Sequence record: PP418985.1
Origin: Escherichia phage UPWr_E1
Length of the DNA stretch: 64,000 nt
Direction: 5' to 3' (one strand)
The notes beneath the pieces were generated by a model that ran no database searches, was not told the DNA's origin, and worked only from the letters and a program-made list of their open reading frames with translations. Below, in pieces: positions 54,618 to 56,892 of the stretch. How positions within the stretch are numbered: position 1 is the stretch's first letter; each line of letters begins with the position of its first letter. The position numbers and the translations under genes were made by a program.

Positions 54618-55007
54618 ATGTTTAAATTATCTCAAAGAAGCAAAGATCGGCTTGTTGGTGTGCATCCTGATCTGGTAAAAGTCGTTCATCGTGCATTAGA
54701 ACTGACTCCGGTCGATTTTGGTATTACAGAAGGTGTACGTAGTCTCGCAACGCAAAAGAAATATGTTGCGGAAGGTAAATCTAAGACTATGAAATCTCGT
54801 CATCTTCACGGTTTCGCGGTTGATGTTGTAGCGTATCCGAAAGATAAAGATACATGGAACATGAAATATTACCGCATGATCGCTGATGCATTTAAACAAG
54901 CTGGTCGAGAATTGGGTGTTCCTGTTGAGTGGGGCGGGGATTGGACTAGTTTTAAAGATGGTCCTCATCTACAATTGCCACACAGCAAATACCCAGATCC
55001 AAAATAA
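54618..55007 (+). CDS. peptidase M15-type L-alanyl-D-glutamate peptidase (endolysin-like), no signal peptide
   Basis: zinc-site motifs SRHLHGFAVD and WGGDW...DGPHLQL as in VanY/T5-Lys-type peptidases. Confidence 0.75.
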   Translation: MFKLSQRSKDRLVGVHPDLVKVVHRALELTPVDFGITEGVRSLATQKKYVAEGKSKTMKSRHLHGFAVDVVAYPKDKDTWNMKYYRMIADAFKQAGRELGVPVEWGGDWTSFKDGPHLQLPHSKYPDPK

Positions 55008-55069
55008 AATATTAACCATCAACGGGGAGACAATCTAAGGATCTCTCCCCGTTCACTGGAGACTTGACA

Positions 55070-55555
55070 ATGAATATTGATGTAAAATTAGAAAGTAAAG
55101 ATTTGATTTATGCTGCATGTGTTTCTGCCGTAGATGGCATCATAGAACGCCGTAAGCGACGCAATTTTGCTGATGACCTAGATTCCATCGTCTCAATCAA
55201 TTTAGGGCGTCAAACAGGGCATACAGACGCTACAATCAAGTTATATGACCATTATACGCGAAAAGGATACAGTGTCTTTATCGTTTCGACAACGCGGGAA
55301 CATGTCAAAACGATCCGAGATCGCGGTCGCGGTGAAAATGTAAATATTTCAAATGTAGATTGTACGTCGATCCGAACTTTCCTGAATCCTATTACATGGC
55401 GAGGTCGTCGGCTTGACAAAACAATCTTTATCCTAGATACTACCATGCGCGGATTTACTGACAGCGTATTGCAGTTTTTAGAATTAAATCGACTTAGTGT
55501 TGGAAGGGGTAGTGTAGAAGACCAACCTATTTTCATTGGCTTAGGCATCAACTAA
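55070..55555 (+). CDS. hypothetical protein (162 aa)
   Basis: GGAG RBS then ATG 55070. Confidence 0.55.
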   Translation: MNIDVKLESKDLIYAACVSAVDGIIERRKRRNFADDLDSIVSINLGRQTGHTDATIKLYDHYTRKGYSVFIVSTTREHVKTIRDRGRGENVNISNVDCTSIRTFLNPITWRGRRLDKTIFILDTTMRGFTDSVLQFLELNRLSVGRGSVEDQPIFIGLGIN

Positions 55556-55690
55556 TGAAAAATAAAGATAGCGTAGCTCGTCGATTCCGTGCTACAATCA
55601 ATAAGAATCGTAAAGTCCAACCTGATAAACTCTATGGGGTTTTGGTTGGAAAAGTTAATGACGAACGTCCTGATCTATAAGAGGTGAATT

Positions 55691-56107
55691 ATGGAATTTA
55701 AAGCAATTCAAATCATGAAAGGTGAGCATAAAGGTACTATTATTGGTGGACATTTCGCGCCTATGATTCTGGTATCAGAACCGAAAGCACTGATCGGCGC
55801 TAAAGTAATTGTTAGTAAAACTTTCGCAGAAGACCATGTGATCACCGCAGAAGACGTAGATTCGCTGGCACTGCACACAACTAGCTTCCGTCCGGTGATT
55901 GTAGATAATGGTGCTCCTGTTGTCGAAGGTGGTCAGCACCTAAATGTTAACGTATTGTTACGAGAAATGTTACTTGACGCGGTTGAACATCCTGAGAAGT
56001 ACCCGCAGCTTACAATTCGCGTTTCTGGTTACGCAGTGCGCTTCAATAGTCTGACTCCAGACCAGCAGCGTGACGTTATCGCGCGTACCTTTACCGAATC
56101 TCTCTAA
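55691..56107 (+). CDS. grcA: autonomous glycyl radical cofactor GrcA/YfiD-like protein
   Basis: C-terminal [12 protein letters not shown]...[38 protein letters not shown] nearly identical to recalled E. coli GrcA, including glycyl-radical motif RVSGY. Confidence 0.85.
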
Positions 56108-56116
56108 TTTTTCATC

Positions 56117-56150
56117 AAGCCAATCCAAAAAGGGTTGGCTTTTTCTTTTT
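56117..56150 (+). terminator. rho-independent terminator after grcA
   Basis: AAGCCAA...TTGGCTT stem followed by TTTTCTTTTT. Confidence 0.55.
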
Positions 56151-56193
56151 ATGATGTTATGATGCAATCTCTTAATCAATTGAGGGTTTAATT

Positions 56194-56892
56194 ATGCATA
56201 CAATGGTTAAAATGGTCTTCGGATCTCACTTATACGGCCTTGATACTGAAAATTCAGATAAAGATTATCGTGGTATCTTTGTTCCGACTGCGAAAGAAAT
56301 TATCTTAGGATCGATGAAAGAACACTATGACCAAAGCACTAGCGGTCAAGGTATCAAGAACACCAAAGACGATATTGACGTTAATATGTTCAGTCTAAAA
56401 CGGTTTATTAATCTGGCATGTAAAGGTGATATTGGCGCTATTGATATGGTGCACGCGCCTAGTAACATGTTGATTGAATCCTCCAGAGAATGGGAATACA
56501 TCCGAACACATCGCGATAAATTCTATCATGTTGGGATGTGGGGTTTATCTGGTTATCTCAAAAAGCAGGTAGTCAAATCTGAAAAGTATTTCAGTAACTG
56601 GAAAGATCTTTCTCATGCTCTGCGTGTTGGTTATCAGCTACTTGAAATCTATCAGACAGGTGATCTACAATTCCCGCTCGCGCGACGTTCTTCTATTTTA
56701 GCGTGTAAGTTAGGAGAAAGAACCTTTGATAATGTGCGGGAAGAATTGAAAGATCTCTACGAACGTGTTAAACTCGCGCGTGAAGAGGCAAAGAAAAACG
56801 GTATGCCGGAAGAACCGGATGTTGACTTTTGGAAAGATTTATTAGAATATATTCATCTGACCGTTGTTCTGGAACACTATACCCGTGGTTAA
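56194..56892 (+). CDS. Pol-beta-superfamily nucleotidyltransferase-fold protein
   Basis: FGSHLYGLDTENSDKDYRGIF fits the G[SG]-x9-13-D-x-D nucleotidyltransferase signature; 232 aa. Confidence 0.55.
   Translation: MHTMVKMVFGSHLYGLDTENSDKDYRGIFVPTAKEIILGSMKEHYDQSTSGQGIKNTKDDIDVNMFSLKRFINLACKGDIGAIDMVHAPSNMLIESSREWEYIRTHRDKFYHVGMWGLSGYLKKQVVKSEKYFSNWKDLSHALRVGYQLLEIYQTGDLQFPLARRSSILACKLGERTFDNVREELKDLYERVKLAREEAKKNGMPEEPDVDFWKDLLEYIHLTVVLEHYTRG

Follow-up and report, generated by a model that had tools for sequence, protein, structure and literature searches.

Escherichia coli GrcA (YfiD) and the bacteriophage T4 protein Y06I are both activated by PFL-AE and restore the activity of pyruvate formate-lyase (PFL) that has been cleaved by O2 (PMC8683613). 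Y06I, the product of T4 vs.6, was characterised biochemically in 2001, as recounted in PMC8683613, and according to that account of Wagner et al. (2001) it is one of just two biochemically validated PFL 'spare part' proteins. Residues 1-60 of YfiD are disordered in solution and aid both the binding to cleaved PFL and the installation of the radical; a duplicate of PFL 693-759 with the same fold is formed by residues 61-127, which enter the active site and carry the radical (PMC8683613). A full-text literature search on the evolution of phage vs.6 returned biochemical work on YfiD and Y06I only, and a description of the T4/RB69 chimera that we present below was not found among the texts searched.

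Here we analysed a 64,000-nucleotide stretch of Escherichia phage UPWr_E1 (PP418985.1), referred to as the window, whose plus strand encodes at 55691-56107 (ATG to TAA) a protein of 138 residues that was recognised from the list of open reading frames and from profile and sequence matches as a GrcA/YfiD-family autonomous glycyl radical cofactor. Judging from the sequence, this gene is very probably the vs.6 of an RB49-like Krischvirus, orthologous to the gene for T4 Y06I and encoding a GrcA/YfiD spare part, which is long resident in the phage and under strong purifying selection and is not a recent capture. The gene as such is already known, having been annotated in RB49 since 2003 and named GrcA in many phage records.

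The start codon of vs.6 is preceded at a distance of 3 nt by a strong Shine-Dalgarno sequence, AAGAGGTGA (55679-55687, plus strand; read from the sequence), which overlaps the stop codon of a preceding 41-aa ORF (55555-55680). Both RB49 and JK32 have this small ORF, RB49ORF100c, conserved in the same place as in the window, with vs.8 on one side and vs.6 on the other. On the other side of the gene, an intrinsic-terminator-like hairpin (56117-56141, 10-bp stem) followed by a T-run (together 56117-56151, plus strand) closes the vs.8-ORF100-vs.6 unit, and its stem is also present in JK32. Together with a promoter-like element that it overlaps, TTGGCT-17-TATGAT (with TG), located upstream of nrdC.11 (56194-56892), the hairpin falls within 56117-56163. 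A putative endolysin of the peptidase-M15 type (54618-55007) lies two genes upstream of vs.6. Within 55000-56600, Rfam yielded no matches at E<=1. Three antisense ORFs on the minus strand (55708-55878, 55775-55939 and 55970-56179) were discarded as chance occurrences, as both the homology and a 14:1 synonymous bias sit in the plus frame.

The vs.6 protein is 100% identical to the product of a gene of Escherichia phage vB_EcoM_Skers annotated as 'putative autonomous glycyl radical cofactor' (98.8% nucleotide identity) and 99.3% identical to RB49 Vs.6 (AAQ15354.1). We therefore assign the window to an RB49-like Krischvirus (Straboviridae) of E. coli, which bears out the enterobacterial host that the initial annotation had proposed. 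The RB49 and Skers genes are 97-99% identical to the window gene at the nucleotide level and share its neighbours vs.8, ORF100 and nrdC.11. RB49 Vs.6 differs from the window protein in a single residue, I instead of V86, while 14 further codon changes are synonymous, and this ratio of 14 synonymous to 1 non-synonymous change is indicative of a functional gene under purifying selection.

The RB49 gene order maps onto the window as putative endolysin, vs.8, ORF100, vs.6, nrdC.11, ..., regB, vs.1, vs, tk.4, tk, rI. T4 has the order vs.8-vs.7-vs.6-vs.5...regB-vs.1-vs-tk.4...tk-rI, and RB69 is arranged likewise. Lying downstream of vs.8 and ahead of the regB-vs-tk early-gene cluster, as members of the vs.6 group do, the window gene is the positional orthologue of T4 vs.6 (Y06I, NP_049730.1), the gene behind the earlier, correct statement that T4 encodes a YfiD homologue.

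Two-part architecture of the vs.6 protein

Profile and sequence searches agree on the family of the protein. Residues 78-119 match Pfam PF01228 (Gly_radical) with 61.3 bits (cut-off 22.2, E=1.5e-16), and TIGR04365 ('autonomous glycyl radical cofactor GrcA', E=3.9e-39) leads the NCBIfam matches. With phmmer, residues 37-138 are matched by PDB 6OWR, the NMR structure of GrcA (E=5.8e-33), and the protein is also matched by the C-terminus of pyruvate formate-lyase in the PDB (E=5.5e-27), a resemblance well outside the range of chance. All of these family matches are PFL-type glycyl radical enzymes, and none is a class III ribonucleotide reductase. The identification as a GrcA/YfiD-like spare-part protein, made in the initial annotation, is thereby confirmed.

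The protein also has the build of the family. It is a small standalone product of ~14 kDa with its own Shine-Dalgarno sequence, start and stop codon, followed by a terminator, and it possesses the features that TIGR04365 and IPR011140 associate with GrcA/YfiD, namely the radical-domain signature and a C-terminal stretch of ~60 residues that nearly duplicates the end of PFL. The signature that we used, [STIV]-x-R-[IVT]-[CSA]-G-[YWF]-x-[ACIV], is found at residues 108-116 (TIRVSGYAV). Its Gly113, encoded by the GGT codon at 56027-56029 (plus strand), corresponds to GrcA G102 and PflB G734, occupies an invariant alignment column and is the predicted radical-bearing glycine.

At the level of sequence, the one GrcA-family feature that the protein lacks is a score above the NCBIfam equivalog cut-off. 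TIGR04365 scores the window protein at 133.8 bits, T4 Y06I at 151.1 and E. coli GrcA at 234, with the equivalog cut-off set at 170. The proteins of Miro, JK32 and T5-like phages also remain below 170 bits, so that all phage GrcA homologues tested do. Since the validated T4 Y06I fails as well, the cut-off does not discriminate function; the line it draws runs between bacterial and phage members, not between proteins that work and those that do not. Its exclusion of phage homologues also accounts for the label 'hypothetical' that the gene bears in many phage records.

Comparison with E. coli GrcA (YfiD, P68066; PDB 6OWR), likewise a small standalone protein sharing the radical glycine, divides vs.6 into two parts at about residue 76-77, equivalent to GrcA 65-66. 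The C-terminal part is the glycyl-radical domain (codons 77-138, 55919-56104, plus strand; GrcA 66-127 and PflB 698-759), as delimited by identity counts and PF01228. Its 62 residues are identical to those of E. coli K-12 GrcA at 56 positions (56/61 when counted from V78). The statement in the initial annotation that the C-terminal ~65 residues match GrcA 'almost residue for residue' is thus right in the main and slightly generous, there being six differences (window/GrcA: V77/R, L90/R, M93/T, L95/E, E99/K and D124/E). At three of these six positions (M93, L95 and E99) the window carries the PflB state. E. coli PflB itself (residues 698-759, PDB 1H16) is identical to the vs.6 C-terminus at 50 of 62 positions; unlike PflB, however, vs.6 does not encode a complete enzyme, and the protein ends in a tail of the GrcA and not of the PflB type. 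With 81-90% identity to the solved C-termini of PFL and GrcA, the fold of this part can be predicted with certainty.

The N-terminal part (codons 1-76, 55691-55918, plus strand), which aligns as the counterpart of GrcA residues 1-65, is fast-evolving. Only 20 of 63 aligned positions (~32%) are identical to GrcA, in line with the N-terminal divergence remarked on before, and this part is 11 residues longer than in GrcA, although the motifs IQI.K and A..IV.K..AED.V are still discernible. It is nearer to T4 vs.6 (25/58 identical) than to host GrcA and carries the phage-type N-terminal pattern of the vs.6 group, M.KA.QI..G.HKGTI ... IVSKTF.ED. T4 Y06I shares the location downstream of vs.8 and the two-part architecture, with 54/62 identical residues in the C-terminal part; its N-terminal part, in contrast, is 18 aa shorter than that of the window.

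The boundary between the divergent and the conserved part of vs.6 is the boundary between the disordered N-terminal and the structured C-terminal domain of GrcA. The N-terminal part is free to drift. In the C-terminal part, an alignment of window vs.6, GrcA, PflB and eight phage homologues contains 35 invariant columns, since both partners that the module has to fit, the enzyme and the activase PflA, are those of the host; the residues of the catalytic loop are all retained in the window protein.

By tblastn, we detected homologues in 1,580 phage records, among them T4-like and T5-like phages and Klebsiella, Salmonella, Aeromonas and Vibrio phages. Their C-terminal matches to E. coli GrcA, out of 62 residues, amount to 59 for T4, 59 for Klebsiella phage Miro, 53 for Aeromonas phage 31, 49 for a T5-like phage, 49 for a Vibrio phage and 44 for JK32. 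The 56/62 of the window is therefore ordinary among phage homologues (44-59/62).

The vs.6 allele of Krischvirus JK32

Comparison with the sister Krischvirus JK32 revealed an empty site at 56157-56172 of the window, where JK32 has a 595-bp gene for the HNH endonuclease QEG05412.1; the window thus holds the endonuclease-free allele. The insertion in JK32 falls exactly at the junction of the hairpin and the promoter-like element between vs.6 and nrdC.11. Between 55895 and 56180 the window and JK32 are only ~60-65% identical at the nucleotide level, whereas the flanks are 97-100% identical (~99% up to 55895 and after ~56180), which marks an allele swap of the vs.6 3' half. The breakpoint again lies at the vs.6 domain boundary, as it does in T4 and RB69 (see below). 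The divergent tract in JK32, comprising the vs.6 3' half and the intergenic region, directly adjoins the inserted HNH endonuclease gene. Such a pattern is typical of homing-endonuclease-associated allele replacement, and it suggests either homing-endonuclease-linked co-conversion or target immunity within the coding sequence of the glycyl-radical domain.

Since the divergence is enclosed by near-identical flanks, one of the two alleles was replaced, and this raises the question of which one. If it was that of the window, its 3' half would have been imported from another phage by recombination, for instance through homing-endonuclease co-conversion, and the gene would be a phage-phage mosaic. 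The sharply bounded JK32 tract with the HNH gene at its end lends this reading some weight, yet we regard it as improbable. Among phage records at >=80% identity, the window-type allele outnumbers the JK32 type by 45 to 9 and is without endonuclease, so that it is more likely the resident allele. In addition, no donor of either allele exceeding 79% nucleotide identity was found elsewhere in the phage collection; for the 3' half of the window, the next best match outside the Krischvirus allele, in Klebsiella phages, reaches 79%.

The JK32 module also alters positions that are otherwise invariant: GGQHLNVNV is changed and RISGYATRF is present, with the radical glycine kept. A loosened constraint or another partner might account for these changes.

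Predicted role in host fermentation

We infer the function of vs.6 from the T4 and E. coli proteins. By this analogy, in an E. coli cell infected under microaerobic conditions, O2 would cleave host pyruvate formate-lyase (PflB) at Gly734. The N-terminal part of the phage protein would assist in binding to this cleaved PFL, the last 62 residues would stand in for the lost PFL C-terminus, and the host activase PflA would put the glycyl radical on Gly113. PFL activity would then be back, and with it the supply of formate/acetyl-CoA and of fermentative energy for phage replication. A host-like C-terminal half is explained by this role, since every residue has to fit the active site of host PFL as well as the host activase. 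Two points count against the spare-part reading: the N-terminal part exceeds its counterparts by 11 (GrcA) to 18 (T4) residues, and the TIGR04365 score is below the cut-off, though that of the validated Y06I is too.

Alternatively, the vs.6 protein might act as a decoy, by titrating PflA or by poisoning PFL, or serve as a spare part for another glycyl radical enzyme, such as host TdcE or phage NrdD. TdcE has the same C-terminus and its gene is the third-ranking E. coli DNA match, and spare parts for other glycyl radical enzymes have been speculated upon in the literature (PMC8683613). Nevertheless, we find this very unlikely, given that the T4 orthologue reconstitutes PFL activity (PMC8683613), that the catalytic-loop residues are all kept and that the family matches are confined to PFL-type enzymes.

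Synonymous divergence from host grcA and the T4/RB69 chimeras

The close resemblance of the C-terminal half to GrcA had been taken in the initial annotation as a sign of a recent host-derived copy. At the DNA level, however, the 186 nt of the window 3' half agree with E. coli grcA at no more than 73.7% of positions and at 43.5% of third positions, and Nei-Gojobori counting gave a pS of 0.76, which is saturated, next to a dN of 0.11. At conserved degenerate residues, 25 of 56 codons are identical to those of grcA, compared with 19.5+-3.4 expected by independent codon choice (1.6 SD above expectation). Searching 5,426 complete E. coli genomes by blastn produced only matches of 60-80% and none above 80%; those to pflB, grcA and tdcE lie at 73-77%, and the best was pflB with 76.8% over 185 nt. 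A bacterial scan with the C-terminal 68 aa, one genome per species, gave at least 80 grcA/pflB loci with a median nucleotide identity of 72% among the matches listed, the best of which was Phytobacter ursingii grcA with 77.6%. Synonymous sites are saturated relative to E. coli grcA, to pflB and to every bacterial and non-Krischvirus phage homologue sampled.

Codon usage points in the same direction. The log-ratios of the N half (0.36) and the C half (0.25) are both mildly phage-like and lack the contrast of the T4 chimera. GC3 was considered as a sign of transfer and set aside as uninformative: it is 0.45 in the C half, and 17% of same-size chunks of the window are equally high. Overall, vs.6 falls a little short of the window average in how phage-typical its codon usage is, the C half ranking near the 6th percentile among chunks of the window, and an old foreign origin would fit with this. 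The combination that characterises a recently host-derived segment, i.e., high nucleotide identity, low synonymous divergence and host-like codons confined to the segment, is not found here. The BLAST and codon-usage comparison suggested along with the recent-copy claim thus uncovered ordinary phage-level divergence from grcA, the very outcome named in advance as speaking against it.

LLDAVEH, otherwise a string of phage modules (Miro and the window), also occurs in the 131-aa-class GrcA of two bacterial assemblies, Phytobacter ursingii and 'Vagococcus sp. WN89Y'. As Vagococcus is Gram-positive and the grcA is of enterobacterial type, the latter assembly seems to be contaminated or mislabelled.

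T4 and RB69 served as a positive control. Over the last 186 nt, their vs.6 genes share 95.7% identity with E. coli K-12 grcA at a dS of 0.08, and by BLAST the T4 gene reaches 98.4% over grcA nt 200-384. At conserved residues, 57 of 59 T4 codons are identical to those of grcA, compared with 18.6+-3.3 expected, and the codon usage of T4 vs.6 is phage-like in the N half (+0.95) and host-like in the C half (-0.20). The nucleotide alignment of T4 with grcA switches abruptly from unalignable to near-identical at ATTGAAGGTGGT. With 88.7% identity, Citrobacter is a more distant match to the T4 3' half than E. coli with its 95.7%, and 633 phage records are >=95% identical to that part of grcA, with Klebsiella phages at 87-89%.

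The vs.6 genes of T4 and RB69 are chimeras in which the 5' ~175 nt are phage-specific and the 3' ~185 nt are 96-98% identical to E. coli grcA, the junction lying at the domain boundary.

A recent host-derived 3' half is hence genuine in T4 and RB69, where the same measurements detect it, and it is absent from the vs.6 of the window, whose 3' half is saturated. That the C-terminal half of the window gene is a recent copy or gene-conversion tract of host grcA, as its 90% amino-acid identity across 62 residues and the T4/RB69 precedent with its abrupt breakpoint might lead one to think, is scarcely credible in view of the saturated synonymous sites, a codon identity just 1.6 SD above independence, the absence of any match above 80% in the 5,426 E. 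coli genomes, a best value of 77.6% among the bacterial matches listed and two halves that, unlike those of the T4 chimera, are alike in codon usage.

Taken with the JK32 allele, these chimeras make vs.6 appear as a gene of two cassettes, the 3' one of which is repeatedly exchanged, a property that concerns other phages more than the window. We tentatively entertain, as a possibility that we rate as rather less than even, that the 3' cassette is a recurrent target of recombination, overwritten by grcA in T-even phages and replaced in an HNH-linked manner in JK32-type Krischviruses. The allele retained in the window would then be an old one, free of the endonuclease and adapted to the phage, with M93, L95 and E99 as the outcome of drift toward PflB-like residues, and the conserved coding sequence itself would possibly be the target of the endonuclease.

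In the interpretation of such genes, high protein identity to the host carries no information on the age of a transfer where the domain concerned is tightly constrained. It is the synonymous sites that tell the old allele of the window apart from the T4 and RB69 alleles with their recent grcA 3' halves. The contrast between them hints at repeated exchange of the vs.6 cassette, on the one hand with the host and on the other in company with a homing endonuclease. If it is indeed a recurrent target, vs.6 would provide a compact system in which to study gene conversion between host and phage as well as homing inside a metabolic gene.
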